From assembly GCA_963718845.1 (NCBI GenBank), contig CAVRAD010000009.1:125171-189170 (forward strand): DNA of 64,000 nt. Reading direction: 5' to 3'. Under the pieces are notes generated by a model. The model had not been told where the DNA came from. It saw only the letters and a list, made by a program, of their open reading frames with translations, and made no database searches. Position 1 is the first letter of the stretch. Every line of letters starts with the position of its first letter. The stretch comes from an uncultured Acidobacteriota bacterium (GTDB lineage: Bacteria; Acidobacteriota; UBA6911). A program made the translations under genes and the position numbers. Positions 2,105 to 63,861 of the stretch are shown one piece after another.

Positions 2105-2121
2105 ACCTCCCAGCCGGCGGT

Positions 2122-2993
2122 TTAGCCGGTAGTTTCACAGCCACTTGCAAGCGCGTAATCGGTTACAATCTTGCCCCCGAGAACATGGTCTTTGAGAATC
2201 CTCACAATCGCTTCAGGTTTCAGATCCACATATTTCACGGGGGATTGACCGGCTATTTCCACGGTCGCCATCGGCTCCCGGCTGCACAGTCCCGCGCAGC
2301 CCGAGGTGGTGACGATGACATCGGTTACCTTCTGGTTTTCGATCTCCTTCAGCAGGGCGCCCATAACATCCCGCGCGCCTGCGGAAATCCCGCAGGTGCC
2401 CATGTGCACGGTCACTTTGGCCCGTGCCTCTCCGGACCGCAGGGTCAAAGTGCGCTTTGCGTCCTCACGTATCTTTTTCAAGTCATCAATGGACAGTCTG
2501 GGCATTTTCTGCCTCCTTTGGCTTCTCCGGAGTTTTGGCTGGTATTGCTTGACCATCTTCGGCACGGAGGCTATTTTCACCTTTCCGTGCACATCCGTTC
2601 CTACCGTGATCACGGGCGCCAGGCCGCAGCAGCCGACACAGTTCACCGTATCCAGGCCGAACAGTTCGTCCGGTGTGGTCTCGCCCTTCTTGATCTTCAG
2701 TTCGCGCTCCAGCGCATCCACCAGCAGCGGTCCGCCCTGGATATTGCAGGCTGTGCCGTTGCAGACGCGAATTGGATGGCGACCGACGGGCTTGAGGCTG
2801 AAAGCCTTGAAGAAGGTCGCGATGGCCAGGACGGATGTCAGCGGGATCATTCACTCCGGCGGCCACCGCCTCGAGCACTTCGCGAGGCAGGTAGCAATAT
2901 GCCTCCTGGCAATCGAGCAGAATGGCAATCATGCGCTCGCGTTTTGCGCCGTGCTGTTTCGAGGATGTCGTTTACTCTTGAAACATCCACCAT
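2122..2993 (-). CDS. NuoE-like 2Fe-2S subunit fused to an HndB-like thioredoxin-like ferredoxin domain (HydC/HndA-type). Frameshifts near 2845 and 2935.
   Basis: N-terminal MVDVSRVNDILETARRK / MIAILLDCQEAYCYLPREVLEAVAAGVN lies in ORF 2486..2932. It continues in ORF 2122..2850 with VLAIATFFKAFSLKPVGRHPIRVCNGTACNIQGG...CVGCCGLAPV (the NuoE motif), then a second domain VHMGTCGISAGARDV...TTSGCAGLC. A GGAGGAA RBS sits 5 nt upstream of the ATG at 2993. Confidence 0.8.
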
Positions 2994-3014
2994 AGTATTC
3001 CTCCCGCTTCTTAC

Positions 3015-3110
3015 TTTTCCTTTTGTGAGGACGGCTCTCCAGAGCCGTCCGGACGAAATCTGCGCATTTACAGTCCGGACGGCTCTGGAGAGCTGTCCTC
3101 ACAAAATCAA
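3015..3110. repeat. Inverted duplication of a ~30-bp palindromic unit (GTGAGGACGGCTCTCCAGAGCCGTCCGGAC and its reverse complement) with a ~20-bp spacer. Likely an operator or terminator.
   Basis: Read directly. Each unit has an internal 9-10-bp stem (GACGGCTC/GAGCCGTC). Unit 2 is the reverse complement of unit 1 with one mismatch. It lies between the 3' end of the upstream regulator gene and the hydC/nuoE-like start. Confidence 0.7.
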
Positions 3111-3129
3111 TCCCGCTTCGCCTCTTCGT

Positions 3130-3642
3130 GATTGCTTCCCGCAAAATCGCCAGCCCTATAGGCAATGTCAGATCAATTTCGGCCGCACGAAAATCGCCGG
3201 AATCCAGCTCAAAAATCCGATCGTTGACGCGATGACGGAAGCGGATGTTTTTATCCGGCTGTCCGGCGACGAGAACCATGAGAGTCGTTTCGATATCGCC
3301 CAGCGGCGCTCTGTCCAATATGCCTGTGCTGGAAGGTTGCGCGAATCGTTGTGCCCTGTCCCGGCTTGGAGTCGATCGTGAGCGCTCCTCCGGCAGCTTT
3401 GGCTGCGGCGGCCAGCAGCGGCAATCCCATCCCAACCTTGCGCGTGGTCCTCGTCGTAAAGAACGGGTCCGTTACTTTTGCCAGCGGTGTCCGCATCCAT
3501 GCCGCGCCCGTTATCGCGGACACGACAAGACCATGGCATCTCCAGGCAGGTCCTCCCATATCTCGATTTCAATTGCGCCGGCGCCGGCTTCCAGGCTGTT
3601 CTGCGCGATATCCAGGATGTGCAATGCGAGATCTTCCATCGG
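3130..3642 (-). CDS. Histidine-kinase-like ATPase (HATPase_c) protein, hfsC / anti-sigma-regulatory-factor-like, associated with the hydrogenase locus. Several frameshifts; the 3' end is uncertain.
   Basis: MEDLALHILDIAQNSLEAGAGAIEIEI (from the ATG at 3642), VRDNGRGMD, DPFFTTRTTRKVGMGLPLLAAAAKAAGGALTIDSKPGQGTTIRATF (N-, G1- and G2-box-like motifs) are spread over ORFs 3511..3858, 3168..3572, 3251..3559 and 2929..3435. Confidence 0.6.
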
Positions 3643-4378
3643 CCTTCCTCCGCCGAGGATTGTCCTGCCGCCTTCCCCGGTCAACGCGCGCCGCAATTCC
3701 GCCAGCGTGGCTTCTTTCATCAGCACGAATGTCGCCGCCCGTGCGACGTCTTTGGGCTCGTGGGCATCGGAAGCGCAGAGAATCGGATATTCTCCTTTTG
3801 GAGCGAACGACGCGCGCGCCCGAGGAAGCGAGCGTTCGCTGCGAAACCTCGATCGCATCCAGAGGCAGGCCCGGGGGAATAAATCCCAGCTGGCCGATGA
3901 TGCCGAATCCCTCTCTGTCGACGTGAGAGGCGATGGCCAGGCCGTCGACGTCGTGGATGGCGGCGACCACTCGGTCCAGGTTCAGCGTGGTCGCGCCCGA
4001 GAGCAGGTGCTCCTCGAAACCCAGGACTTCGCCGGATTCGTTGGCGATCACCTGCATGCCGAATGCGCTTTCGTCGTTTCGCCCGGGCAGCGATCGGTAC
4101 ACCTTGGATTGAAGCTCCATCGCGGCGGCGATGTTGGGCAGCAGTCCCAGGATGTGCACTTCCTCCGAACTGGTGATCTCCATCCCCGGGATTACTGCCA
4201 ATCCGGCAGCATTTCCGGCGCGCTGCACCGCCGCGGCGTTTTCGGCGGAGTTGTGGTCGCACACAGCTATGGAATCCAGGCCCGCCCGGATCGCGGCATC
4301 CACGATGGCAGACGGATGCATGTCCAACTCAGCGCATGGGGACAGGCAGGTATGGATGTGTGTGTCGACCATAAACAC
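3640..4378 (-). CDS. PHP-domain metal-dependent phosphoesterase. Frameshift near 3800.
   Basis: MFMVDTHIHTCLSPCAELD...IAVCDHNS...GMEITS...HILGL...ASHVDRE, then a C-terminal PILCASDAHEPKDVARAATFVLM in ORF 3511..3858. These are typical PHP motifs. The same neighbourhood (PHP, HATPase, DRTGG, HydS) occurs in Thermotoga/Thermoanaerobacter hydrogenase loci. Confidence 0.7.
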
Positions 4379-4380
4379 CT

Positions 4381-4731
4381 TCAGACTGTCCTCCTTCCGC
4401 GAACACCCTGGGCAAAAAGAATCCCGATGGCGTCAAAAGCCTGCAGGGGGGTGGAGATGATCGGGATGCCGATTTCGTCTGCGCGAGCGACCGTGTCCGG
4501 TTCCGGCTGTCTACCGTTGACCAGAACAATCGCGGCCAGATTGTTGAGCTGGGCGACGGCCACGATGTTCACGTGCTTTTGCATGGTGACCCAGATATCG
4601 CCTTCGCGGCTGTTTCCCATCACGTCCGAGAGCAGGTCGGACGCATAGCCCCCCTGGATTTCCCGGTCCACTGCGGAGCTTCCAGCCATCACTGTGCCTT
4701 CGATACTTTGTGCGGCTTCGGCGACGTTCAT
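4381..4731 (-). CDS. DRTGG-domain protein (CBS-associated regulatory domain).
   Basis: A 116-aa intact ORF: GGYASDLLSDVMGNSREGDIWVTMQKHVNIVAVAQLNNLAAIVLVNGRQPEPDTVARADEIGIPIISTPLQAFDAIGILF. Its start overlaps the stop of the upstream HydS-like gene (ATGA). Confidence 0.7.
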   Translation of the reverse strand: MNVAEAAQSIEGTVMAGSSAVDREIQGGYASDLLSDVMGNSREGDIWVTMQKHVNIVAVAQLNNLAAIVLVNGRQPEPDTVARADEIGIPIISTPLQAFDAIGILFAQGVRGRRTV

Positions 4732-6062
4732 GGTTGTCCTCCGACTGCGTGTCTTTGAGTTCTAACAAGGCCGGCAAGCTGCTCGATCCGGTTTTCGAGC
4801 TCCCGCGCCAGAAGAAAACGCACAATTCCTTGTCCGCGTCGCCGAGCACGACATCCTCGGCAAATGCCCGGCAGGAGGGGGCGCCGCATGCGCCGCAATC
4901 GATCCGGGGCAATTCACCCAGTATCCTGTCCCGTTCCTTCATTTTGAGGATGGCTCTGGAGATGTCCGCGTCCAGCGGCCGCAGCGGCCGGCCGGTAAGA
5001 TACTCGTCCATCAGGAATTCCTTTTTCCTGTACGCTAATTCCACTTCGTGACGGTCCACCATGCATCCGGCCGGCAGGTTCTGCTGAAGCTTGATCGCTT
5101 TGCCGCGCGCCAGGTAGGGATTTTCGACGGTGAGACATCCTCCGACGCAGCCTTCGGGACACGCATGGCATTCGATATAGCGGTATTTGCGCAGCCGACC
5201 TTTTTCGATGTCATCCAGTATGCGCATCACGTTGGGCAGTCCCGCTACAGACAGCGTGTTTTCTGCCGGCAGCGACCGCGGGAATCTGCCCAAGAAAGGC
5301 CCAATCCAGACCCGAGGCGGACTCGACCGGGTCGATTTTGTATTCGGTTTCCTGGACTCTCGAAACGGCGGCCGCCAGGGTCTGGAACAGATCGCAGATC
5401 GAGACTGCCGCGTCGAGATGGGACCGCTGCATGCCGGGGTGCTCCAGAATCGCGACAATCTTGGCCGGGCAGGGAGTGATATACACGGCTCCGATTTTTT
5501 CCAGCGGCAGTCCGGTTTCTTTCGACAGGCGGAGCTTCGCGGCTCGCGCGGAAATTTCTCTGGGGGCCAGCACGGGCAGGAGTTGATCGACCAGTTCCGG
5601 GTATTTCACCTGCAGCAGCCGCACCACGGTCGGGCAGAAGGAGGAAATCAGAGGATATTGTCCCCGGTATTCGTTCATGAAAATCTCCGTTGCGAGGGTG
5701 ACGGCGTCGCACGCGGGCGAGACGCTTTCGACATCGTCGAAGCCGCACTGTTTCAGGGCGGTAAAGATCATGCCGGGGAAAACTTCCGAATCGAACTGGG
5801 CGTAGAGCGCGGGGGAGGGAATAGCCACCTTGCATTCGAATTTGGAGAGGTCGGCCATCTGGTCGGTCAGCGGGACGATGGCAGCCCGCGGACAAACCCG
5901 GATGCATTCGCCGCAGTCGATGCACCGGTCGGCGAGCTTCACGGCTCGCTCATTGCGAATGCGGACCGCGGCGGTCGGGCAGACGCGCATGCAGGACATG
6001 CATCCGTCGCATCGTTCCACGTCAAATCGCAATGAGTGATGATATTGAGCAACCATTTTCAA
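4729..6062 (-). CDS. Sensory-type [FeFe]-hydrogenase-like protein (HydS/HfsB-like): N-terminal 2x[4Fe-4S], an H-cluster-like domain with variant motifs, and a C-terminal Fe-S domain. Frameshifts near 5270 and 4845.
   Basis: ORF 5211..6062 has CDGCMSCMRVCPTAAV / CIDCGECIRVCPRAAI, an L1-like ISSFCPTVV and an L2-like ITPCPAKI. ORF 4511..5458 continues with an L3-like YIECHACPEGCVGGC and LPRIDCGACGAPSCRAFAEDVV. The last 40 aa (ARELENRIEQLAGLVRTQRHAVGGQP*) sit in a third frame. Non-canonical L1/L2 motifs are characteristic of sensory rather than catalytic hydrogenases. Confidence 0.7.
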
Positions 6063-6498
6063 GCCTTATGACCGTTTGTTTCACCCGGATATGAAGCCGG
6101 GTGCCCCGACCCACTTCCGAACTGATATTGAATTCATCCGCGTTTCTTCGAATGTTCGGCAACCCCATCCCGGCTCCGAATCCCATTTCTCTCATCTCCG
6201 GAGTGGCCGTCGAGTAGCCTTCCTGCATTGCCAGATTGATGTCCGGGATGCCCGGGCCCCTCGTCTTCGATGCGAAGCGTGATGTCTTCGCTGCTGACGT
6301 TGAGCCGGACTTTCCGCGCGTGGCATACATGACGAGATTCATCTCCGCCTCATACGAAACGATGGCGACGCGTCGCACCACCGCGGGATGAACGCCGAGG
6401 CGCTTGAGCGTATCCTTGATTTGAGTAGAAACTTTTCCCGCATTTGCAAAATCTCTGCCCAAAACGCTATAGGTACTTTCAAGTGCCTCCGCCATCAT
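6022..6498 (-). CDS. HATPase_c-domain protein (anti-sigma regulatory factor / Ser-kinase-like), a second copy. Compensating frameshift pair near 6260-6300.
   Basis: MMAEALEST...VVRRVAIVSYEAEMNLVMYA...GPGIPD...GFGAGMGLPNIRRNADEFNISSEVGRGTRLHI. Between ~6300 and ~6260 the alternate frame reads ARKVRLNVSSEDITLRIEDEGPG, the expected kinase-core sequence, whereas the ORF frame gives SGSTSAAKTSRFASKTRGPG. Confidence 0.7.
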   Translation of the reverse strand: MMAEALESTYSVLGRDFANAGKVSTQIKDTLKRLGVHPAVVRRVAIVSYEAEMNLVMYATRGKSGSTSAAKTSRFASKTRGPGIPDINLAMQEGYSTATPEMREMGFGAGMGLPNIRRNADEFNISSEVGRGTRLHIRVKQTVIRLENGCSISSLIAI

Positions 6499-6499
6499 T

Positions 6500-6876
6500 T
6501 GCTCTCTGAAAGTGCCATGTAAATCCGGCCGGCGGCTTCAAACATTTTGAACGGCGTGCCGAGAACCGGGATCTTTGATTCTCTCGCCAGGGAGAGGATG
6601 TCTTCGCCGGGTTTCTTGCCGCGCACAAAAACCACTCCGCATAGGTCCGCCACAATGGCCGTTCGTGATCACCTGTGTGCTGACAAGACCGGTGAGAAGA
6701 AGCGTTCCCGTTTTGCTTGTAGCCAGGACATCACTCAGCAGGTCCGCAGCTCCCACCGCAGCGACTTCTACCGAGAGGTCGTCGCCGTTGAGCACTTCGG
6801 CTCCAGGAGGTCCCGGATGTCGGCAAGTGTGAGTTGCTTCAGACCTGTCATTGAACCGGACATTTTCACCTTCGCT
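6500..6876 (-). CDS. DRTGG-domain protein, a second copy. Frameshifts near 6815 and 6655.
   Basis: Reconstructed as MSGSMTGLKQLTLADIRDLL / AEVLNGDDLSVEVAAVGAADLLSDVLATSKTGTLLLTGLVSTQVIT / RTAIVADLCGVVFVRGKKPGEDILSLARESKIPVLGTPFKMFEAAGRIYMALSESK* over three frames. The stop overlaps the ATG of the downstream HATPase gene. Confidence 0.65.
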
Positions 6877-6899
6877 AGTGTGCGGGGACCTTGTGAAAT

Positions 6900-7760
6900 C
6901 CATTGCCCCTGTTATGGCTTGCTTCTGCTGCCTTTGTGCGGCCGATAACCAGATTGCCCTTGCGGATAACCCTGGCTGCCGGAATTTTTCTGGCCGGGCA
7001 GGATTCCCAGCAGAGCCCGCAGCCGGTGCATTTGGTGTGATCGACATACGTGGCGTTGTGCCGGACCTTCACCCGGAAGTTGCCGACGAATCCTTCGACC
7101 TCTTCCACTTCGCTGGAGGACATCAGCTTGATGTTCGGGTGCTTTCCGACCTGGACCATCTTGGGCGTCAGGATGCACGCGGCGCAGTCCAGCGTGGGAA
7201 AGGTTTTGTCGAACACGGCCATGTGCCCGCCGATCGAAGGCTGCTTTTCGACCAGATATACGGTGCGGCCCGCATCGGCGATATCGAGCGCGGCCTGGAT
7301 TCCGGCGATGCCGGCGCCCACGACCAGAGCCGCGGGATTCACCGGGACGGTCTTGTGGGGCAGCGACTGACAGGTTGGCCGCCTTGGCTACCGCACCGGC
7401 AAGGAGCGCTTTGGCTTTTTCGGTCGCCGCGTTGGGATCGACCGTCACCCAGGAGCAGTGCTCCCGGATATTCGCCATCTGGAACAGGTAGCGGTTCACG
7501 TTCGCCCTCTCGCAGGCCCCGCGGAACGTGGGTTCATGCATGAGCGGCGAACAGGAGGCAACGACGACCCGGTCGAGACCGAGGTTTTTGATGTCGTCCT
7601 CGATGAGGATCTGGCCGGGATCGGAACACATGAATTTGTATTCCCGGGCTATGACTACTCCGGGCAGTTTCTTGGCAAATTCCGTTACTTCCGCAACATC
7701 CACTTTGCCGGAGATATTCGTGCCGCAATGGCACACATAGACGCCGATCTTGGTACTCAT
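6900..7760 (-). pseudogene. hdrA: HdrA-like (heterodisulfide reductase subunit A) N-terminal fragment: the Cys-rich N-domain, start of the FAD domain and first ferredoxin motif only. Frameshifted near 7360 and ~6960 and C-terminally truncated.
   Basis: ORF 6912..7760 MSTKIGVYVCHCGTNISGKVDV...YKFMCSDPGQ...VVVASCSP...ANIREHCSW. ORF 6875..7342 ALVVGAGIAGIQAALDIADAGRTVYLVEKQPSIGGHMAVFDKTFPTLDCAACILTPKM...CTGCGLCWESCPAR. After ~300 aa the next gene (DRTGG) begins, so the C-terminal ~350 aa normally present in HdrA is absent. Confidence 0.7.
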
Positions 7761-7769
7761 GCGATCTCC

Positions 7770-8640
7770 TTATGCGTATTTGGCCGTGACTTCCGTCGCC
7801 GGGACGATGCAGTCATTCAATCCCAGGCCTTTCGAATCCAGTCCGAAGGCAACGCCCATCAATTGAGTGAAATACACAATTGGAAGATTGAAATTCGTGC
7901 CGTAGGTCTTGTTAATGGCTGATTGAAACGCATCCAGGTTCATTTGACATAGCGGGCATGTTACCGCAATGCATTGCGCGTCGTACTGCTGGGCGCAGAG
8001 AAGGAGATTGCGGCAGAGGCGAAGCGCGACGTCCTTGCGTATTCCCATCAGCGAACCGCCGCAGCACACCGTCTTCATCGGATAGTAGGTCGGAGTTGCG
8101 CCGAGCGCTACAAGCAGCTTGTCCATCATGGTCGGATTGTCCGCGTCGTCTTCGATGCCGTAGGGCCGGGCGATCTGGCAGCCGTAATAGGGCGCCACGC
8201 GCAGCCCTGTAAGCGGATGCTTCACGAGCGATTTGATGCGATCGAGCCCGACATCTTCCACGACTGTCTGAAGGAAGTGCTTTGTAACGATGCCTCCTTC
8301 ATAGCTCAAGCCCGCCTCGGCGAGAGCCGTATTTACTTTGCTCTTAATTTCCGGGAATTCGGCCAGGTAGGTTTCCGTTTTGCGCAGGTTGGTGTAGCAG
8401 GCGCTGCAGGCGGTGACCAGCGTATCGCCTATTTTCTTCGCCTGGCACAGGTTGCGCGCGCTCAGGCTGAAGGAGAGGGCTTCGTTTACGCTCATGTAGG
8501 CGGTGGCGCCGCAGCAGTTCCAGTCTTCGAGTTCTACCAGTTCGATCCCCAGCGCCTTGGCAACGCGCGGCCACCGATTCTTGGTACGGCCTTCCGGTTG
8601 CTTCCAGAGAGCATCCCGGGTAGTAGGCGTAGCGCATCAT
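7770..8640 (-). CDS. hdrB: Heterodisulfide reductase subunit B-like (two CCG domains). Frameshift near 8500.
   Basis: N-terminal MMRYAYYPGCSLEATGRPYQESV (ORF 8344..8640), then ORF 7770..8495 with ACSACYTNL...YYGCQIARP...TVCCGG...TCPLCQMNLD. Confidence 0.8.
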
Positions 8641-9221
8641 TCACCTCCCAATTCTTTGGCTTTGGCAACAATTTTCCGAAGTCCCTCGATGTCGCGAACC
8701 TTTTTCCCGAATAGGGGAAGGCGGTTGTGAGTAATCAAGCCCGAGTCCGACAGGCGCAAGGGACATTCCACTCAATGGGCTTTGTCGACAATCATGACTT
8801 TAAGCATCAACGAAGTCTCGTGGTTGCGCCCCTTTTTGTTGACAATGTCGAAGAATGCCCTCGATAAGGCGGCTGCATTCTTGCTGCGCTTCCTGTTTTC
8901 CCGCATGGCCATTCTTTTGAGCATGTACATGATGTCCGTGATCTTGATCTCCTGAGGGCAGCGGTGCATGCATTGATAGCAGGAAGCGCAGGTCCAGATG
9001 GTGGTGCTGTCCAGCACCTTGTCCCGCATCCCCGCCCGGATCATGGCAAAGATCTGCCGCGGCGTTTCCTCCATTGCCCATGAGACCGGGCAGGATCCGC
9101 TGCAGGTCCCGCACTGGATGCAATCCTTGATCTTTTCTCCGCCTGGGATGCGATAGATCTCGTCAAGGAAATTCAAATCCATGGCCTGTTCATAAATAAC
9201 CGTCTGCTGCACTCCATTCAT
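8637..9221 (-). CDS. hdrC: Heterodisulfide reductase subunit C-like (2x[4Fe-4S]) with an in-frame TGA at 8770-8772.
   Basis: ORF 8772..9221 has CIQCGTCSGSCPV...CASCYQCMHRCPQEI. The same frame continues after the TGA as VECPLRLSDSGLITHNRLPLFGKKVRDIEGLRKIVAKAKELGGE*. The stop overlaps the hdrB ATG. Confidence 0.7.
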
Positions 9222-28832: not shown

Positions 28833-29321
28833 ATGAAGTATTTATTCCTGGCTCTGTCGTCCTTTCTGGCGATCATTGCGCAGATGATTGCAGGGGACAA
28901 CTTTTTCCTGTTTAACTTTCTTGACCTGTCGCTGATCCTTATTGCCTATTGGGCAATTTACCGGAGCAGGATTCAGGCGCTTTTCGTCGGCGCATTGACC
29001 GGACTGCTTCTGGATGCCGCGCTGGGCTGGCCGCTCGGATATAATGGATTCGGCAGGACTCTGGCTGCATTCATGATCGGGCAGTGCTGGAAAAGGTTCA
29101 ACACGATGGAGCAGCCCTGGGTGAGGTTCACGATTATTGCGGCCTCTTCCTGCCTGAGCTCGCTGAGCGTTTTTATCTTGTTCTGGCTCCTGCAGCGATC
29201 CATGAACCGGATCTTCCTGGGGGCTTCCGTTTTGCAGGCATTCATTACGGCGGCCGTTGCGGTTATTGTGTTCGCTGCTTTCGAAACCTACAAGAGAAGT
29301 CAAACGAACAAAGTGCACTGA
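28833..29321 (+). CDS. mreD: Rod-shape-determining protein MreD.
   Basis: A 162-aa polytopic membrane protein directly after mreC. Confidence 0.75.
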   Translation: MKYLFLALSSFLAIIAQMIAGDNFFLFNFLDLSLILIAYWAIYRSRIQALFVGALTGLLLDAALGWPLGYNGFGRTLAAFMIGQCWKRFNTMEQPWVRFTIIAASSCLSSLSVFILFWLLQRSMNRIFLGASVLQAFITAAVAVIVFAAFETYKRSQTNKVH

Positions 29322-29328
29322 GCGAGAT

Positions 29329-31187
29329 GTGGCCCTGCAGCAGGAATCCAACCGGCAACTGATCCAGCAACGGCTGAATTTATTCCGCCTTCCTGTCGCA
29401 TTGATCTTTCTGATCCTTGCGGCACGTCTATGGCAGCTGCAGATCATTCAAGGCTCCGAATACGGGCTTCGGGCGGAACGCAACCGGATTCGCACAATCC
29501 AGCTGGTTGCTCCTCGCGGCACCATAGCCGATCGCAACAATACTCCGCTGGTCGAAAACCGGCCCTCCTTTAACGTTGTGCTGTACCGCGAGTGGATGGA
29601 GAACCGGGAAAACACCGCCCGGTTCATCACGGATAAACTTGGTGTCACGCGGGAAGATCTGGAAGCGCGTCTGCGCCGCGGCAAAAATACCGGCCTCTAT
29701 CATCCCATCGTTCTGAAGGAAGACGTTGGAATGGCGGACATCTCGGTCATTGAAGCGCACAAGCGCGATCATCCGGAAGTCCAGCTGAGTACCGAGCCGC
29801 GCAGGTTGTATCATTACGGCAGACTTGCCGCGCATCTGCTGGGGTATGTCGGTGAGATTTCGGAAAAGGAACTGGCTTCAAATATGTTTCCCGGCTCGGT
29901 GTCCGGTTCCCAGATCGGGCAGAGCGGCGTGGAAAGAACGTACAACAGGATTCTGTTCGGCAAAGATGGGTCGCGCCAGGTTCTGGTCAACAGCATGGGG
30001 CAGGAAGTCGGCCGTCTGGAGGAAATAGATTCTGTTATAGGCGGCGAGATTCAGCTGACGCTGGACCTGGATCTTCAGTCTGTTGCCGAAAAAGCCCTGG
30101 AAGATAAAGTCGGAGCGATCGTTGCCATGGATCCGCGCAACGGTGAAATCCTTGCGATGGCGAGCGCCCCCTCCTTCGATCCCAACGATTTTTCGACGCG
30201 CATATCCGAGGAAAAATGGGCGGAGCTGATCGATCACCCGGACCGGCCGATGCAGAACCGGGCTATCCAGAACAGCTATTCACCCGGTTCCATATTCAAG
30301 CTGATCATGGCGGACGCAGGTCTTGAAGAGGGCCTGCTTGAGGATAATCCGGCGGTGACCTGCAAGGGGGCGGCCAATTATTATGGCCGGACATTCCACT
30401 GCTGCGCAAAAGGATGGACATGGACCGCTTCGTCTGGAGCAGGCAATCGCTAAATCGTGCAACATCTTTTTCTATGAGTTGGGCCGGAGGCTCGGGATTT
30501 CCAAAATTGCGGAGCACGCACAGGCTTTGGGCTTGGGTTTGCAGACTGGCATCGATCTGCCGGGCGAGCGCGCGGGAGTCATGCCCAGCCCGGAATGGAA
30601 AATGAAAGCGCGCCGGTCCAAATGGTATGCAGGGGAGACGATATCCGTTTCGATCGGGCAGGGCGCTGTGAGCACGACGCCGATGCAGATGCTTCGCGCC
30701 GTGAGCGCCCTGGCAACCGATGGCTTGCTCACGACTCCGCATGTGCTGTTGCGCGCAGAAGGCAGCCGCGGAAAATAGTCTGAAATGGCCTGGGCGTCGG
30801 ATTCCCATCGGCTCAGAGAATGCGCGCCGGATACGGCAGGGAATGTGGGAGAGCGTCAATAACTATGGGACGGGGCATAATGCCGCAATCCCCGGGCTGG
30901 ATATTTGCGGAAAAACCGGCACCGTCCAGGTAATCAGCAATGAAGGGAAACGGCAATCAGGCGAAGACTTTGAAGACCATTCCTGGTTCGCAGGCTTTGC
31001 CAGCAGAGATAATCCAGAAATAGCGCTGGTCGTTTTCCTCGAACATGGAGGGAAAGGAGGCGTCGCGGCGGCTCCACTTGCCAGGCAGATTTTTGGCGCA
31101 TATTACGATAAAAAGAAAAACAAAACGGCCATCGGCGACCTGTCACGGAATGCGGGCCGACGGCGGCCAGTCACGGCTTTCCCATGA
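29329..31187 (+). CDS. mrdA: Penicillin-binding protein 2 (elongasome transpeptidase). Frameshifts near 30400 and 30760.
   Basis: ORF 29257..30453 (dimerisation domain), ORF 30383..30778 (...AIAKSCNIFFYELG...) and ORF 30720..31187 (...KTGT...) carry the SxxK/SxN/KTG transpeptidase elements. The stop overlaps the rodA ATG (ATGA). Confidence 0.85.
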
Positions 31188-34868: not shown

Positions 34869-35765
34869 TCCCTGATTCCGGATTCCAGATTCCAGATTCT
34901 CGATTCCAGATTTCAGTCTGGAATCTGGAATTTGGAATCCGGAATCGTTTGCGGTCGTAGCTGCTTCTTGCTTTTTCGCCTCATCCCAGAGCGCGTCCAT
35001 TTCGGCGAGAGAGGCATCCTTCAGTTCACGCCCCTGTTTTTTGATCGCGGATTCAATGTGCCGGAAACGACGGTCGAACTTCCGGTTGCTGCGGCTCAGA
35101 GCCGTTTCAGGATCGATGCCAAGGAACCGGGCGATGTTTACTGCCACAAAAAGCAGGTCGCCGATTTCATCGGCAACTTTTTGAGTGTCTTTCTGCGCAT
35201 GCGCCTCCAGAAGCTCGGAGGTTTCCTCTTTTAATTTTAGGAGGATGTCGTCCAGTTGCGACCAGTCGAAACCGACCCGGGAAGCCTTCGCTGTCATTTG
35301 ATACGCCCGATGCAATGCCGGCAGTTTCGACGGGATGCCGTCCAGGAGGGATCTTTCGGCATCCGGATGCGAAGAAGAGGGGACCCCTTTTTCCGCGGCT
35401 TTGATATCTTCCCAGTTCTTTAAAACATCCCCCGCTGTTTTCAAGTCGGCGTTCGCGAAGATATGGGGATGCCTGCGCACCATTTTTTCATGCGAACGAT
35501 CGATGACATCGGCCAGGTCAAATTCATTCTTCTCCCTGGAAATCTGGGCGTGAAAGACGACCTGAAACAGCAGGTCGCCCAATTCATCCTTCAGTTCCGC
35601 CGGATCTCTGGAATCGAGCGCATCGAGCACTTCGTATGCTTCTTCGATCAGCATGGGCTTCAGCGTCTCCCGCGTCTGCTCCCTGTCCCAGGGACATCCA
35701 TTTGTCGCCTCGCAGCTGTCGACAAGACCTTCCAGCTTTCCGATATCCGCGTATTTCTTGTCCAT
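34800..35765 (-). CDS. mazG: Nucleoside triphosphate pyrophosphohydrolase MazG; the C-terminal tail reads through a GGAATCY repeat hairpin.
   Basis: Two MazG EExxE domains (LIEEAYEVLDA..., LKEETSELLEA...). The ORF continues ~45 aa past the usual end (…ALWDEAKKQ) into sequence encoded by the gattccagattc repeats at 34871-34948. Confidence 0.8.
   Translation of the reverse strand: MDKKYADIGKLEGLVDSCEATNGCPWDREQTRETLKPMLIEEAYEVLDALDSRDPAELKDELGDLLFQVVFHAQISREKNEFDLADVIDRSHEKMVRRHPHIFANADLKTAGDVLKNWEDIKAAEKGVPSSSHPDAERSLLDGIPSKLPALHRAYQMTAKASRVGFDWSQLDDILLKLKEETSELLEAHAQKDTQKVADEIGDLLFVAVNIARFLGIDPETALSRSNRKFDRRFRHIESAIKKQGRELKDASLAEMDALWDEAKKQEAATTANDSGFQIPDSRLKSGIENLESGIRNQGLRHDVVMLDVKSRIGFYDHVSF
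34871..34948. repeat. GGAATCY-type heptamer hairpin.
   Basis: cctgattccggattccagattccagattctcgattccagatttcag|tctggaatctggaatttggaatccggaatc. Confidence 0.85.
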
Positions 35766-45696: not shown

Positions 45697-46010
45697 TAAA
45701 TATGGGAAAGGCTCAACCACCGATACAATCGATTCGGATTCCAGATTCAGATTCGAGATTCCAGGTTCCAGATTCGAGATTCCGAAGGTTCCAGATTCCA
45801 GATTCCAGGTTCCAGATTCCAGATTCCAGTTCCAGATTCCAGATTCGAGATTCCAGATTCCAGCAGTTCGAGATTGGCAGATTTCGAATCTGTTCATTGG
45901 GTTGTTATATCCGCAATCGAAATTTGATTTAGCTCCCCGCTACCATAACTCCACTGCAGAACTTGAGGCGCATCAATATCCGAAATTACGTTTTTCTCTG
46001 GAATCCGGAA
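45697..46010. repeat. Long GGAATCY heptamer array (~25 units) plus a ~90-nt conserved element plus a short inverted arm.
   Basis: About 180 bp of gattccagattccaggttccagattcgagattcc..., then gattggcagatttcgaatctgttcattgggttgttatatccgcaatcgaaatttgatttagctccccgctaccataactcc (45885-45975), then ggaatccggaatctggaatccggaatc. Confidence 0.85.
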
Positions 46011-51682: not shown

Positions 51683-51832
51683 CGAATTAACAAATACTTG
51701 TTTGTTCGGGCAAAGAGCCGGAACAAATGCGAGAGGATACATCGAGACTGCCTATGATTAGTCAGCAGCCCATACCTGGCAGTATGTTTTCATTCGTAAT
51801 TCGCAATTCGTCATTCGTAATTAGGTTACGAC
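51663..51832. repeat. TTACGAA-type heptamer hairpin with a ~100-nt loop.
   Basis: cgaattacgaatgacgaatta...loop...ttcattcgtaattcgcaattcgtcattcgtaatt. Overlaps the last codons of ruvC (…KMTNYE). Confidence 0.8.
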
Positions 51833-52625
51833 GATTCCCGCATAAGCCACCACCTGTTCATAGTCGCCACTGGCTTCGCCCGAATTGGTGTAGCGGATCA
51901 AATGGCCGGAAACGGCTCCCGCATCGCGGCACGCGGTGAGGACCGCGACGGCAGGGGCAAAGCCGCACATAGTGATGTCCTTATCCAATACAACTTCGTA
52001 GAGCCCCGCGGGATCTAGCGCCAGGATGCGGTCGATGGCGAATTGGTCCTGCCTGGCCGCATCCTCCTTCGATTCGTAGTGCGTCATGTCGGAGCTTGCA
52101 ACAAGCAGCACGGGTTCTTTCAGCGAGCCGATGACTCTTGCCATGGCATGCCCGAGATCTTTAAGGATGGAGAAGTCTATTTGCCGGATGCAGATGGCGC
52201 AGAAAGTAAATTCCGGCTGCAGTATTTGAAGGAAAGGAATTTGGACCTCTAAAGAGTGTTCATACCGGTGCGCTGCGGCATCCTCCTCGAGTTCGGGGCA
52301 CTCTGCCATCAGTTCCCGGTTCATCTCCGCGTCGATGGATGCGGTGCCCAGCGGCGTCTCCCACGTGCCTGCCGGCGCAAGTGCGAAGCGATGCGCCTCT
52401 GCCTGAATGATTAGGGCCCAAAAGGATGATTCGGCGGGGCAGGCGCACGGATGAAAAAACTTCGCCCGTCACCGCGCCCGAGTAGATATATCCCGCGTGT
52501 GGAACGACGACGGCTTTGGCGTCCAGCAATACCTCGGGTTTGCGGATGAATGACGCGATGGTCTCGCGCAACTCATCCGGATCATCCGGATAAAATCTGC
52601 CCTCGACCGTTGCCTCTCGTTTCAT
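51821..52625 (-). CDS. MEMO1-family protein (AmmeMemoRadiSam system protein B-like). Frameshift near 52300-52400.
   Basis: ...AVVVPHAGYIYSGAV...ILLGPNHSG... (ORF 52260..52625) and ...SLEVQIPFLQ...SSDMTHYES... (ORF 51821..52324). Confidence 0.7.
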
Positions 52626-54139: not shown

Positions 54140-54402
54140 AGGATTAAAGGATTAAAGGATTAAGGGATTAAGGGATTAAGGGATAAAGGGATTAAAGGAT
54201 TAAAGGATTAAGGGATTAAAGGATTAAGGGTGTAAAGGGTTAAAGAGGTAAAGAGATGGGGAGCCAGAAGCAAGAATCCAGAAGCTGGACTCCCGAATCT
54301 GGAATCTCGAATCTCGAATCTGGAATCTGGAATCTGGAATCTCGAATCTGGAATCTGGAATCCGGAATCCGGAATCCGGAATCTCGAATCGGAATCATGC
54401 TA
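54140..54402. repeat. Tandem GGATTAAA array (~14 units) immediately followed by a GGAATCT array (~17 units).
   Basis: ggattaaaggattaaaggattaagggattaagg... then ctggaatctcgaatctcgaatctggaatctgg.... Both arrays are in a single orientation here, not an obvious hairpin. Confidence 0.85.
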
Positions 54403-56025: not shown

Positions 56026-58596
56026 AAATACTAATTCTCCGCTCTGCGTGTCGAGGCCCAAATGAATTGAATCTCCGGGGCTGACGTCTCCATTCAGGAG
56101 CAGCATGGCCAGTCGGTCCTGAATCTTTTTTTGGATGAGGCGCTTGAGCGGTCTGGCACCGTACACCGGGTCATACCCTTCGCGGGCGATTTGTTCAACG
56201 GCCGCGGGCTGAGACGGTCAGCGAGAGTTCTTTCTGTGCCAAAATCTTTTCCAGCTGCTTGAGCTGCAATTCAACGATGCCTTTGATCAGATCCTGCGTC
56301 AGGCGGTGGAACACGATCACGTCGTCGATCCGGTTGAGGAACTCCGGCCGGAACGTGCTGCGCAGAGCCTCCATGAGCTGGGGCATTGCTTTGTCCATGT
56401 CTCCGGAGGATGTCGCTGATTGCCTGGCTGCCGATATTGGATGTCATGATGATCACGGTGTTTTTAAAATCAACCGTGCGGCCTTTCCCGTCTGTGAGCC
56501 GTCCGTCGTCCAGGATCTGGAGCATGATGTTGAAGACATCCGGATGGGCTTTTTCGATCTCGTCAAACAACAGAACGGCATAGGGCCGGCGACGGATAGC
56601 CTCCGTCAGATACCCGCCCTCTTCGTATCCGACATAGCCCGGGGGCGCGCCGATCAGGCGCGCCACCGAATGTTTCTCCATGTACTCCGACATGTCGATA
56701 CGCACCATGGCGTGTTCATCATCGAAAAGGAACTCGGCCAGGGCTTTTGCAAGCTCGGTTTTCCCGACACCGGTGGGGCCGAGAAATATGAACGATCCCA
56801 TAGGCCGCCGGGCATCCTGCAAGCCTGCCCTTGCGCGTCTGATCGCATTCGATACGGCAGCCAGCGCATCATCCTGTCCCAGTACGCGCTGGCGCAGGCG
56901 ATCTTCCATGTGAACCAGTTTCTGAATCTCTCCTTCCAGCATCTTGCGTGACCGGGATCCCGGTCCACTTGGCCACGACTTCGGCAATATCTTCCTCGTC
57001 CACTTCTTCCTTCAGGAATTTTTTGCTCGATTGCAGCTGTGTCAGCCTGTCGTTCTGCTGGGAGAGTTCTTTCTCCAGCTGCACGAGGGTGCCGTAGCGC
57101 AGTTCCGCGGCCTTGCCCAGGTCCCCGAGGCGCTCGGCATTCTGTTCCTGAGCTTTGACGTTTTCGATCTTTTCTTTGACGGCTCGGATCGAGCCGATAA
57201 TTTCGCGCTCCTGCTGCCAGTGCAGCTTCATCCCGCGCTTTTTTCCTGCAACTCGGCCAACTCGGCATTCAGAGCGTCCAGCCTGTCCAGCGACGCCTTG
57301 TCGGTTTCCTTGGAGAGTGCCTGGCGCTCTATTTCCAGCTGCGTGACCCTCCGCTCGACCTCGTCGATTTCAACCGGCATGCTGTCGATTTCGATGCGCA
57401 GTCGCGACGCCGCTTCATCCATCAGATCGACGGCTTTGTCCGGCAGAAAACGGTCGGCGATGTAGCGGTGGGACAGAACTGCCGCCGCGACAATGGCGGA
57501 GTCGGTGATGCGCACTCCGTGATGCACTTCGTATTTTTCCTTCAGTCCGCGCAGGATGGCGATGGTGTCTTCCACGGAAGGCTCGCCGACAAATACGGGC
57601 TGGAACCGGCGCTCCAGCGCTGCGTCTTTTTCGATGTGCTTCTTGTATTCGTTGAGCGTGGTAGCGCCGATGCAGCGCAATTCCCCGCGGGCAAGGGCCG
57701 GCTTGAGCATATTGGAGGCATCGATCGCTCCCTCGGCGGCTCCTGCGCCGACCAGCGTGTGAAGCTCGTCAATGAAGAGGACAATCTGCTCCGGCCGACT
57801 CCTCGATTTCCCGGAGAACCGCTTTCAGCCGGTCTTCGAATTCGCCGCGGTATTTGGCTCCGGCCAGCATCCCGCCAAGATCCAGCGCGACCATCTGCTT
57901 CTTTTTAAGAGTCTCGGGAACGTCCCCGGCGACGATGCGTTGCGCCAGTCCTTCCACGATAGCTGTTTTGCCTACACCCGGTTCTCCGATCAATACGGGA
58001 TTGTTCTTGGTTCTGCGCGACAGGACTTGAATAACCCGCCGGATTTCGTCGTCCCGTCCAATCACAGGGTCCAGTTTGCCGCGACGGGCCAGGTCCGTGA
58101 GATCACGCGCATATCGCTTTAGTGCCTGGTATTTCTCTTCAGCATTCGGGTCGGTCACCCGCTGGCCGCCCCTGATCGAAGCAAGGGCTTTGAGGATGTT
58201 GTCTTTGCTTGCCCCCTGCCTGCGCAGGAGTTCGCCCGCCAAGCCGTCCGCAGCGGCGAGAGCCAGCAGAAGGTGCTCGGTCGAGACATATTCATCTTTA
58301 AACTGGTCGGCCTCTTTCTCAGCCTGCGAGAAAACCGCATCCAGCCTTTGTGAAAAAGAGAGCTGTCTCCCATCGACTTTGGGTTGCGAGGAGAAATGCC
58401 GGTCGAGTTCGGAGCGCATCGAATCGATCGACACTCCAAGCTTTTTCAGCAGGGGAGCAACAATGCCGTCCTCCTGCCAGGCCAGCGCTTCGAGCAAATG
58501 CTCGGGCTCAAGCTGCGCGCTTTTCAGGGTTTCCGCCCTCCGCTGGGCTACCTGTAACGCTTCCTGAGCCTTCAGGGTGAATTTATCTAACCGCAT
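56011..58596 (-). CDS. clpB: Chaperone ClpB (Clp/Hsp100 AAA+ disaggregase). At least five frameshifts.
   Basis: N-domain and NBD1 in ORF 57769..58596 ([15 protein letters not shown]). The M-domain coiled coil is in ORFs 57228..57710 and 56869..57231. NBD2 is in ORF 56271..56987 ([15 protein letters not shown]...). The C-terminal domain is in ORF 56195..56398 and a further frame, ending ...[10 protein letters not shown] at 56011. Confidence 0.9.
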
Positions 58597-60901: not shown

Positions 60902-61003
60902 GGAAAGCCCTCCTTGGATGAAACCACACGATCGATGGGGACAGGATACAAGAATCCCGATGCGCGACACAAGCAGGAAGGCAAAATACGTACCTGGTTA
61001 TAG

Positions 61004-61046
61004 TGTCCCCCAAACTAAGAATCTGGAATCTGAATCCGGAATCACA
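61004..61046. repeat. GGAATCY-type heptamer run (single arm) preceded by the 20-nt motif CCTGGTTATAGTGTCCC (60987-61003).
   Basis: acctggttatagtgtcccccaaactaagaatctggaatctgaatccggaatc. The same 17-20-nt motif occurs at 9641-9660. Confidence 0.7.
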
Positions 61047-62766
61047 CTAATGAATGCCGCAGGTCCCGTCTTTGCAGGTCACGGGTGCGGGCATCCTGAT
61101 GGGTTTTGCGTCAAAACAAATTCCCTTCTTTGGAATCCACTTGTCGATGGACACGGTCTGTGTGTAGGTGAAATCCGTTGTCGTGAACATCGGATTCCAT
61201 TCCCCCCCACTACAACGAGGTTAATCGCCATCGCCCTCATCGGGAAAGGGCCTGCGGGTTTTTTGATCCGGTCAAGAAGCCACTGGCGGAACTCTTCCTT
61301 AGTTTTAAAGTTTTCCAGTCTTTTGAGATTTTTGGCTGTCAGCGGATCCAATATAAATGTTCCACCGGGAATCATAGACTGCATGCCATTTAGCGCATCT
61401 GACATTCTATCCGCCATCTGGCCCGCAGCGCCCATTCCCAGGTGATTGATATTCCAGCCCCGGAAAAGGCTTACCGTGCTTTCCTCCGGCTTGAAGCCTT
61501 TTTCTACGTGCAAAGGCGCCCAGGGGGACTCTTCTTCGTTTTCTCCGGCGAACATGTTGTTATAGTTCGTAACGTTTCCGAAAGTAGCGGTGAAATTTTC
61601 GTTGATTTTGGCGTTGCCGAAATTGAAGCTCATGAGCGTGTACGCCCTTCCGATAACGGAATTGGCGAAATTAAAAGGACTGAATGCCCCGGCCCCGCAG
61701 TTGATGGCTATCTGTTTTCGTATCGGCCCGTTCACAATCACCATCCTTCCGAATGAAGTGGTCGAGCTGGGCATGGACGGCTCCTGGCTGGCCGCCAGGG
61801 CAAGGATCACGGGGAAGTGTTCGGGCCTCGCGCCTGCCATGACTGCATTCACGGCCACCTTTTCAACCGTGTATTCATATCTTTCCTCATGGGTTGTGAC
61901 GGACATTCTGCCGACAACCTCATCCGGGGGATGGTCTGTGCCAGCCAGCATCTCCGCGACTTTTTCTTCCGTGGGAAGCTCTATAGGCATGCCATCGGTC
62001 CACCCATTCTCGATGAACATCCGCTTATAGTTTTCTGCTGTATCCTTCTTTAGCAGCCGCGGCCTTGTGGGTCTTTTAATTACTTTGGGATTTTTTTCGT
62101 CATCGGTCAGAGGCTGGGTAAGGGCATCCACCATTTCCTGCATCAGCGGCCTGCCCGTTACCGGATCATTGCCATCGACATAGCCGCGCAATACTTCCTT
62201 TGACATCCATCCCACCGGGTAGGGCGGATAGGCATAGCGAAGGGGCATCCCGTGACTATCGGAATCCCGGAATACGTAATTGGCAAACTTGGCTGTTACT
62301 ACCGCGCATGTGGGTACGCGGTGCGTGTGTTCCAGCGTTCTGCTGAATTCGGCGATACTCGCCGAACAGCCGTCTCAACCGCCTACCCCGACGATAGCGG
62401 CATCGCCTCTTTCCGCAATTTCCGCCCATAGGGCGGGATCGTCCGTGAATATCATGCCTTGCGTGCTGCGGGATTCGATCTTCACGGCAGGCATATTGCG
62501 CACAAACCATTCCGCCGCTTGATCCATGAAATCCTTGGCTCCATGGAAGCCCGTTTCAACCAGGTAGACAACCTTTCCCTCCAGGCTGTTCAGGCGGAGG
62601 GCCATTAACTGTCCTTCCATGGATGACAGGTCCTGGGTCGGCTGGCGATAGGGATCCAAAACCACGCCGGTATTTTTTGAAGTGGGATCGGATACCCGTC
62701 CGAATATTCCGGATGGCTGGCCTACCGGGTCCAAAACATTTTCAAAAATAATGTTTTCCGCCATAT
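61047..62766 (-). CDS. Candidate selenoprotein (~570 aa): N-domain, a thioredoxin-fold-like UxxC motif (in-frame TGA at 62373-62375), and a large C-terminal domain of unknown family. Frameshifts near 62310 and 61205.
   Basis: An AAGGAG RBS sits 7 nt upstream of ATG 62766 (MAENIIFENVL...). The protein reads ...GDAAIVGVGG-TGA-DGCSASIAEFSRTLEH, a beta-strand, then U/CxxC, then helix context. Coding continues as ...RVPTCAVVTAKFANYVFRDSDSHGMPLRYAYPPYP... (ORF 61079..62248) and ends ...TCKDGTCGIH* after a 7-G homopolymer shift. Confidence 0.55.
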
Positions 62767-62832
62767 CAATTCTCCTTGCGCAGACCATTAAGACTCTGCT
62801 GTCATCATAAGCCAGGCAATCAGTCCATCCCG

Positions 62833-63113
62833 TGGGTCGGGGCTTCAGAGGCTGTCTCAAAACTCGCATTGGGCGGGCCTTCAGCCCTTGATTTTCTTTT
62901 ACGACTTTTTCCTGGGGCTTCGCCCCAGGCTGGTATGGATCGCGCCTTCGGCGCTTTAAGATCCTAAATTTACAGCAATTTAAGCGCCGAAGGCGCGCGC
63001 TATATCAGCCTAGGGCGAAGCCCTAGGAATTTAGCGACAACCAGGAAAAGGGCTGTAAGCCCGCTCAATGGGCGAGTTTTGAGACAGCCTCTTCAGCCCC
63101 GACCCACTTGTTC
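62833..63113. mobile_element. MITE-like element (~280 bp): GTGGGTCGGGGCTTCAG terminal inverted repeats enclosing nested perfect palindromes.
   Basis: gtgggtcggggcttcagaggctgtctcaaaactcgc...gcgagttttgagacagcctcttcagccccgacccac. Inner palindromes include gggcgggccttcagccc/gggctgtaagcccgctc, ggggcttcgccccagg/ctagggcgaagccctag and gcgccttcggcgc/gcgccgaaggcgc. Confidence 0.65.
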
Positions 63114-63252: not shown

Positions 63253-63543
63253 TCATGCTGCGGACTTTTTCTTAAATCTGGAGAGAGACTCGGAAAGAAG
63301 CAGTTTGATCAGAGCTTGATAGGGTATGTCGGTTTCTGAACTAATCGCCTTTAGTTCGTTCAATAACGGAGAGGGTAACCGGATTGAAATAACCTGCGTT
63401 GGCGGAACTGCCGGCAACTTCAGCCCAAGGTCTTCAAGCTTCAACGGCTTGGATGGATCGATCATACCGGTCGTTTCGACGGCGTCATAGTCGCTGATAG
63501 CGCGTCGTGGTTTTTGTTTACCGCTCGACTTTTTCCTCTTCAT
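63253..63543 (-). CDS. brnA: BrnA-family antitoxin (CopG/RHH-like).
   Basis: MKRKKSSGKQKPRRAISDYDAVE...ISIRLPSPLLNELKAISSETDIPYQALIKLLLSESL. Confidence 0.75.
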   Translation of the reverse strand: MKRKKSSGKQKPRRAISDYDAVETTGMIDPSKPLKLEDLGLKLPAVPPTQVISIRLPSPLLNELKAISSETDIPYQALIKLLLSESLSRFKKKSAA

Positions 63544-63817
63544 AAATCTGCCGTTCCTTTCGTGATGCAGCTCTCGCTGTAATGACTCGAACCCGGGCTC
63601 CCCTGGCTGTGAACCCAATCATCAGCACGCGATTCTCGAGACTCCTTCCATAGAGAATGTAGCGGGCTTCGCGGGAAGTGGAGTGCTTGCCATCTTGGTA
63701 CAGTTTATATCCGGGATCGTAAAATGCGCTTTCAGCCTCTAACCGGCCCACACCATGCTTGACCTCGTTTTTCTGGATGTTCCATTGATCCCAATCGAAC
63801 TCGATGAGCTTGGTCAC
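63518..63817 (-). CDS. brnT: BrnT-family toxin (DUF497 ribonuclease toxin).
   Basis: ...LIEFDWDQWNIQKNEVKHGVGRLEAESAFYDP...RYILYGRSLENRVLMIGFTARGARVRVITARAASRKERQIYE. Probable GTG start at 63817 (the ORF track extends to 63856). Overlaps the brnA start. Confidence 0.75.
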   Translation of the reverse strand: MTKLIEFDWDQWNIQKNEVKHGVGRLEAESAFYDPGYKLYQDGKHSTSREARYILYGRSLENRVLMIGFTARGARVRVITARAASRKERQIYEEEKVER

Positions 63818-63840
63818 GAGAGCAGAATAGCACCCTAAAT

Positions 63841-63861
63841 CTGTAGTGTCAAACACTACAG
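63841..63861. promoter_or_regulatory. Perfect 8-bp inverted repeat (CTGTAGTG-tcaaa-CACTACAG) ~25 nt upstream of brnT; candidate autoregulatory operator.
   Basis: Read directly. Type II TA operons are typically autoregulated by the antitoxin binding a palindrome at the promoter. Confidence 0.4.

Follow-up and report, generated by a model that had tools for sequence, protein, structure and literature searches.

A predicted long-form UGSC selenoprotein, annotated as two halves, in an uncultured Acidobacteriota bacterium

The window analysed here, 64,000 nt of contig CAVRAD010000009.1 (assembly GCA_963718845.1, positions 125,171 to 189,170 of the forward strand) from an uncultured Acidobacteriota bacterium of the lineage UBA6911, carries on its minus strand, at 61047..62764, a gene with an in-frame TGA. 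Judged from comparative sequence evidence, this gene encodes a genuine selenoprotein, in which UGA-130 is read as selenocysteine (Sec) under the direction of a 17-nt Sec insertion sequence (SECIS) hairpin, giving one cytoplasmic polypeptide of 572 aa. The gene is the misannotated long form of an already catalogued, functionally uncharacterised family, the UGSC proteins, fused to a large domain without a family model. Taken as a whole, a Sec-decoded UGSC fusion that would act as a reductase, with the loss of one G close to its 3′-end being an assembly error, is probably the right explanation of the locus. Its features are the following:

61047..62764, minus strand: full coding region for the long-form UGSC selenoprotein, from translation; orthologues span residues 1-572, and the C-terminus is given as repaired
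62772..62777, minus strand: Shine-Dalgarno sequence AAGGAG, 7 nt 5′ of the ATG at 62764-62762, read directly
62375..62377, minus strand: predicted Sec codon UGA, residue U130 of U-D-G-C133; TGA in 68 of 68 loci, aligned to the first Cys of CSTC or CGSC
62349..62365, minus strand: predicted SECIS core hairpin UCGGCGA-GUA-UCGCCGA, 7 bp, from covariation, bacterial SECIS rules and synonymous-site entropy
62342..62370, minus strand: extended hairpin with lower stem GCUG/CAGC, -15.6 kcal/mol
62183..62644, minus strand: UGSC domain (PF24696), residues 41-194, spanning the UGA
61134..62182, minus strand: uncharacterised C-terminal domain, about residues 195-544
61050..61133, minus strand: clade-specific C-terminal tail PKKGICFDAKPIRMPAPVTCKDGTCGIH, with the Cys pair C564 (61074-61076) and C569 (61059-61061) invariant in the clade
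61202..61208, minus strand: run of seven G, one G short (frameshift); orthologues all read VVGGEWNP, and this is the sole indel against locus L079

A first-pass annotation of the window, made from the letters alone, had proposed a minus-strand gene of ~570 aa with an AAGGAG ribosome-binding site, and translation agrees: once the TGA is counted as Sec and the missing G put back, the gene has 572 codons, from an ATG at 62764-62762 (not at 62766, as had been given) to a TAG at 61049-61047, with the binding site at 62777-62772. From the ATG the frame runs through 129 codons to the TGA at 62377-62375, which is codon 130 in the context AAIVGVGG-U-DGC-SASIAEF that had also been read before, and then stays open to 61079, i.e. 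for 431 further codons, in keeping with the ~400 aa of coding-like sequence reported past the TGA. An indel that had been placed at 62310 is not needed because the frame runs unbroken from the TGA to 61079, while the one suspected near 61205 is there, as the missing G of the run at 61202-61208. Among the in-frame TGAs of the window that are flanked by open frame, this one was an outlier, with 209 open codons upstream and 431 downstream, and the scan of the 64 kb yielded no other convincing in-frame TGA selenoprotein candidate.

The TGA was found to be strictly conserved. In an orthologue scan with one genome per species, 365 genomes encode relatives, and the best 78 loci were examined, in which the matches cover residues 1-572 or begin at residues 4-21 (one ends at a contig end). 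All 68 loci in which the motif could be placed carry TGA, and never TAA, TAG or a sense codon, within GVGG-U-[DE][GA]C-SAS; they come from five or more phyla, with Acidobacteriota (including Acidiferrales), Desulfobacterales, Dehalococcoidia, Bacillota and Leptospirales represented, so that chance is ruled out. An exhaustive HMMER search also returned cysteine (Cys) homologues, which are single full-length proteins of 545-570 aa without Sec and have Cys on the TGA column, namely the proteins P0256, P0270 and P0285 (CSTC), P0260 (CPGC), and P0321 and P0362 (CGSC). By BLASTP, P0256 aligned with the window protein at 39% identity over 479 residues (E = 6e-102) with its C-S-T-C on U-D-G-C, and the C-G-S-C of P0321 falls on the same residues; the first-pass annotation had advised looking for relatives with Cys at this position, and such homologues do exist. 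The locus combines a conserved in-frame UGA with coding conservation on both sides, Cys homologues, and a hairpin that follows the SECIS rules, by which bacterial selenoproteins are recognised, and the selenoprotein candidacy is upheld.

The hairpin, numbered from the U of the UGA, pairs positions 13-19 with 23-29 around the loop G20-U21-A22; this 17-nt core begins 9 nt past the UGA, whereas the extended form of 29 nt starts 4 nt past it, and a 56-nt region scored z = -2.28 versus shuffles. With 7 bp, a loop of GUA or A-GUA-U, 16 nt from UGA to loop and -9.9 kcal/mol, the core lies within the bacterial SECIS consensus (stem of 4-16 bp, loop of 3-9 nt, G in the first two loop positions, 16-37 nt from the UGA, minimum free energy <= -7.5 kcal/mol; PMC13188914). 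Across 65 distinct orthologous sequences, 98.7% of cells were paired and G20 and U21 were invariant, and compensatory changes occurred at pair 15:27 (G-C to A-U twice, to U-A once) and at pair 16:26 (to C-G once). The latter is in locus L062 (6358-6405), where the swap from G-C to C-G costs two amino-acid changes (SAS..A to SPS..G; CSPSIGDF), so that here RNA structure overrides protein sequence. Third positions are likewise frozen over codons +4 to +8 (TCG GCG AGT ATC GCC), with an entropy of 0-0.37 bits versus 1.4-1.85 bits in equally conserved upstream Gly/Val codons and 1.5-1.8 bits further downstream, indicating selection on the RNA itself. No SECIS-type Rfam match was obtained in 61000-63000 at E <= 10. 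The first-pass annotation had described a two-stem hairpin ~6 nt past the TGA: both stems do fold in the window, but the start lies at 4 nt and the lower stem GCUG/CAGC is only partly conserved (its pairs are retained in 25-100% of sequences), while the identification as a bacterial SECIS with a GU apical loop and the expected spacing holds. Two or three adjacent long-form paralogues, each with its own in-frame TGA, were observed at L012 and L014 (Acidiferrales) and at L042 and L073 (Dehalococcoidales); in one of them the motif is GVAG-U-PGC and the downstream RNA folds as a different hairpin. Two copies, L006 and L067, are also present in the complete relative OY761556.1.

Public gene callers instead treat the TGA as a true stop, leaving a 129-aa UGSC fragment and a separate protein of ~390-420 aa, and the protein database does store the two halves as separate entries: the best 120 of 287 N-terminal fragments all end at the TGA (mostly after 129 aa, with a few that have a longer or shorter N-terminus), no encoding contig was on record for the 100%-identical N-terminal fragment P0121, the C-terminal pieces start at arbitrary start codons past it, and among the downstream halves a few are named ‘UGSC family (seleno)protein’ by NCBI despite having no NCBIfam match, and most ‘hypothetical protein’. 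However, the window has no in-frame ATG, GTG or TTG in the 42 conserved codons 3′ of the TGA, so this stretch could be produced only via read-through and two separate genes are impossible; the Pfam UGSC model and the BLASTP alignments cross the TGA unbroken (residues 41-194 in one piece), the codon is never another stop, a SECIS stands at the right distance, and the Cys homologues are undivided. A true stop is hence extremely improbable, and two outcomes that the first-pass annotation had named as fatal to its proposal, two separate genes and orthologues with a genuine stop there, are both contradicted. A different objection is that the gene may be a pseudogene in this genome, and it is a point against the favoured explanation that the frameshift stands in the sequence as given: seven G occupy 61208-61202 where GTG GGG GGG GAA is required, and a real deletion would cost the protein its last 52 residues, and with them conserved strands and the Cys tail. 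With one G added, the translation becomes ...VVGGEWNPMFTTTDF...CKDGTCGIH followed by the stop, as in every orthologue, and the repaired C-terminus reads ...NLVVVGGEWNPMFTTTDFTYTQTVSIDKWIPKKGICFDAKPIRMPAPVTCKDGTCGIH before the TAG. The pseudogene reading is nonetheless unlikely. The loss is a single base within a G run, no further indel or stop was found in 1.7 kb against the 93%-identical relative L079, and other conserved genes of the window are broken as well, namely the Memo gene (51821-52625) by a 1-nt insertion near 52389 versus L079, and the ClpB gene (56271-58596; identified via L079), which is split into pieces. Such breaks suggest an indel-prone assembly, and since the missing G is the sole indel versus L079 and lies in the same window as these, it is most likely an assembly error.

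The N-terminal part was assigned to a known family. Residues 41-194 matched positions 4-157 of the 172 of Pfam UGSC with 60.5 bits versus a gathering threshold of 25, so the domain is not of an unrecognised family, as had been thought, and U130-x-x-C133 occupies the conserved UxxC/CxxC column. At E <= 1 no other Pfam match was obtained, including none to the GRDB model (PF07355). NF041046, the UGSC_fam equivalog built on the ~150-aa short form, gave 44.7 bits against a cutoff of 125, and the full-length Cys homologues, at 32-86 bits, are also under it, which marks the long form as a related but distinct subfamily. The UGSC-containing protein was first listed as a predicted selenoprotein family in 2007 (PMC1976440), was one of the most abundant such families in the Global Ocean Sampling data, with a UxxC motif, 255 Sec versus 21 Cys sequences and ‘likely a Trx-like fold’ (PMC2398784), and was still uncharacterised in reviews of 2022 and 2026. 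With that family (PF24696, NF041046; PMC1976440, PMC2398784) the window protein shares, besides the domain match, Sec in a UxxC at the column where members have UGSC or CGSC, and a predominance of Sec over Cys forms; it differs in the motif, U-[DE]-[GA]-C instead of U-G-S-C, in the score far under the equivalog cutoff, in the extra ~380-aa domain and CxxxxC tail, and in the predicted fold. A ‘UGSC/Unknown_1 fusion’ was reported from the Global Ocean Sampling metagenome in 2008 (PMC2398784, Fig. S1A), resembling the window gene in having a UGSC domain fused to a conserved uncharacterised domain with conserved Cys; Unknown_1 might be the C-terminal domain of the window gene, of whose motifs the examined portion of the sequence supplement of PMC2398784 contains none.

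Structure models were considered for P0256, the 39%-identical full-length Cys form, and for P0001, a 96%-identical C-terminal part. In the P0256 model (predicted local distance difference test score, pLDDT, 90.3; predicted template modelling score, pTM, 0.90), the N-terminal domain has the order b-a-b-a-b-a-b-a-b with the CxxC at the beginning of helix 3, immediately following strand 3, and the UGSC domain is predicted to be flavodoxin-like. The thioredoxin-fold redox geometry proposed earlier stands in that a strand is followed by the motif at a helix N-terminus, but not as to the fold, and a thioredoxin-fold oxidoreductase was rejected on the basis of the model.

The C-terminal domain, about 350-380 aa with dozens of invariant residues, carries the motifs GWTDGxP, PTEE, VEKVAVNAVMAGARPEH, PSSTTS, NGPIR and ANSVIGRA, and further NYNNM, ENEE, FRGW, VVGGEWNP and DKW. 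It had been described as unrecognised and remains so after searching, with no Pfam or NCBIfam match, no PDB sequence match and no structural relative in the PDB by Foldseek. The exhaustive HMMER search with its profile collected 4,754 clusters at 50% identity, of which 793 lie below 1e-30; across this wider family the redox column holds Sec, CxxC or neither (MDTL, TVTS, SSST and others), and a second TGA-using subfamily was found that has GVGH-U-SSC and a signal peptide. C564 and C569 (C564-x4-C569, CxDGxCG) are invariant in 72 members of the window clade, to which the tail is restricted, and distant homologues end at ...DxWR. Some Sec forms look lipoprotein-like and one CGSC form has a leader of the twin-arginine translocation (Tat) type; lipoprotein-, Tat- or general secretory (Sec-type) leaders were seen among L057, L061 and L067 (N-termini), L080 (580-951) and P0362, and part of the family, selenoproteins included, appears to be exported.

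Gene neighbourhoods were surveyed for the CxxC forms with neighbouring sequence available and for 64 Sec loci. Beside each of the CxxC forms P0256, P0321, P0260 and P0270 stands a same-strand gene for a Pyr_redox_2 protein, of 303-327 aa in three cases and in that of P0270 a 162-aa fragment ended by the contig end, all four carrying the C-A-[STLC]-C-D motif of the thioredoxin-reductase type. No such gene adjoins the exported CGSC form, nor the redox-less P0244 and P0296, one of which sits between glycyl-radical enzymes; in locus L083 (3571-13102), two redox-less homologues (MDTL) are interspersed among genes for two glycyl-radical enzymes and a radical S-adenosylmethionine activase, which points to a different, non-redox role of the MDTL branch. 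In 38 of the 64 Sec loci there is a short-chain dehydrogenase/reductase (SDR) gene, usually immediately downstream and typically at a distance of 30-40 nt, and genes for CoA-transferase III, MarR and SBP_bac_5/Opp recur. P0260 sits in an array of SDR, thioredoxin-reductase-like, SDR and UGSC genes, P0256 adjoins an Opp-type ATP-binding cassette (ABC) system, and an OPT oligopeptide transporter is the next gene downstream both in the window and in the 96%-identical relative.

We propose that the protein would be a reductase, in which the selenolate would attack a small organic substrate bound by the C-terminal domain, C133 would resolve the adduct to form a selenenylsulfide, and a thiol-reductase system would then re-reduce the enzyme. 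In the Cys-form paralogues the re-reduction could be carried out by the dedicated thioredoxin-reductase-like flavoprotein encoded next door, and in the Sec clade presumably by the general thioredoxin system, possibly via the C-terminal CxxxxC tail. The oligopeptide-type transporters, OPT in the window and Opp-type ABC elsewhere, together with the frequent SDR neighbours, suggest that the substrate may be a compound that the cell imports, with a hydroxyl or keto group at which it is oxidised or reduced as well. Such a reductase, cycling through a selenenylsulfide and recharged by a thiol-reductase system, is put forward tentatively, with slightly more doubt than confidence.

The proposed reaction logic resembles the Sec-dependent reductive cleavage by the B proteins of glycine and proline reductase. 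In GrdB (protein B of glycine/sarcosine/betaine reductase) and PrdB (D-proline reductase), both of PF07355, the Sec of a UxxC acts as a nucleophile together with a resolving Cys. The likeness would be a functional analogy only, extending to a thiol-reducing system, anaerobe hosts and nearby genes for the uptake of amino acids or peptides; no sequence match (no Pfam match at E <= 1) and no homology to them was found, and the window protein is a single polypeptide with neither a pyruvoyl partner nor a GrdA-like carrier in the neighbourhood. Compared with thioredoxin and the low-Mr thioredoxin reductase, the Cys forms are encoded beside a Pyr_redox_2 flavoprotein of ~310 aa that has a CxxC-D motif, and the redox motif lies at a helix N-terminus as well, but the redox domain is predicted not to have a thioredoxin fold, and the Sec clade is without the adjacent reductase.

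Other functions could be built on the same residues. U130, C133, C564 and C569 might provide the four ligands of a metal, metalloid or cluster site that serves ion binding, traffic or sensing instead of redox turnover, for which speak the four invariant soft ligands in the clade and the proposal of metal binding for the UxxC/CxxC motifs of several other predicted selenoproteins (PMC13188914). We regard this as quite unlikely, given that Sec forms without the tail exist (L080), that the neighbourhood holds no conserved metal transporter or chaperone, and that the thioredoxin-reductase-like partners of the Cys forms argue for disulfide chemistry over a metal site. Neither does it seem likely that the UxxC domain serves for general thiol-disulfide exchange or as an antioxidant module, with the C-terminal domain as a non-catalytic binding or scaffold part: a generic redox role has been assumed for UGSC proteins in the literature (PMC2398784), some homologues are exported or lipoproteins, and redox-less ones exist, but conservation is stronger in the C-terminal domain, which has many invariant polar residues, than in the N-terminal one, and the genes linked in operons, for SDR, CoA-transferase and transporters, look catabolic. 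Several observations weigh against the Sec-decoded reductase itself. No thioredoxin-reductase-like gene is adjacent in the Sec clade loci, and among the closest relatives the remaining neighbourhood varies and is poorly conserved; the 64-kb window has no tRNA, and no selA, selB, selC or selD was seen there; and no biochemical data on any UGSC protein were found in the family literature. Furthermore, many family members have neither Cys nor Sec at the redox column, which makes the core function of the C-terminal domain independent of the redox centre, and the long-form family may be functionally heterogeneous.

As to the host, which the first-pass annotation had taken to look anaerobic, the genes behind that impression were found in the window: 374-9221 on the minus strand holds NuoF-like, NuoE-like and [FeFe]-hydrogenase large-subunit-like genes together with HATPase, CCG-domain and 4Fe-4S ferredoxin-domain genes; the CCG and 4Fe-4S domains are such as occur in heterodisulfide reductase B/C subunits, and the cluster supports an anaerobic host. 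Immediately upstream of the selenoprotein gene, a pair of BrnT toxin and CopG-type antitoxin genes is encoded at 63253-63856 on the minus strand, and at that position the 96%-identical relative L079 has instead a cluster for sulfate assimilation and siroheme (NIR_SIR, two PAPS_reduct, a CysN/C-like GTPase/adenylyl-sulfate (APS) kinase, and TP_methylase). An Acido-Lenti-1 RNA (RF01687) was detected at 62911-62955 on the plus strand, ~150 nt upstream of the ATG and on the opposite strand (43.3 bits versus a gathering threshold of 37, E = 5e-8), with a weak partial second match at 62983-63000 on the minus strand, consistent with the acidobacterial origin. About 25 intergenic sites carry short tandem repeats with a period of 7-8 nt (GATTCCA/GAATCTG, AAGGATTA, ATTCGTA) in up to 18 copies, mostly at or between gene ends, such as 45737-45863, 54140-54396, 34874-34946 and 61019-61043, and one repeat lies directly 3′ of the stop codon of the selenoprotein. 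A third gene, at 29257-31187, is probably broken into pieces as well.

The gene leaves the understanding of Sec decoding unchanged, and its significance lies with the family. In aquatic metagenomes, UGSC proteins belong to the most abundant of the predicted selenoproteins, with no function assigned, and public annotation systematically cuts the long form into two ‘hypothetical proteins’, so that recognising it as one Sec protein corrects thousands of gene calls, and the C-terminal domain defines thousands of sequence clusters, yet has neither a family model nor a solved structural relative. As a doubtful but definite proposal, the long-form UGSC proteins might be undescribed single-polypeptide selenoenzymes, joining a flavodoxin-like Sec/Cys domain to a catalytic domain without solved relative for a thioredoxin- or thioredoxin-reductase-driven reduction of an imported organic compound together with SDRs, in which the CxxxxC tail would serve the window clade as an electron shuttle and redox-less paralogues would have gone into other pathways, e.g. 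beside glycyl-radical enzymes. The pairing of Cys forms with thioredoxin-reductase-like genes, and of Sec forms with SDR genes, provides a first concrete biochemical hypothesis for this family.

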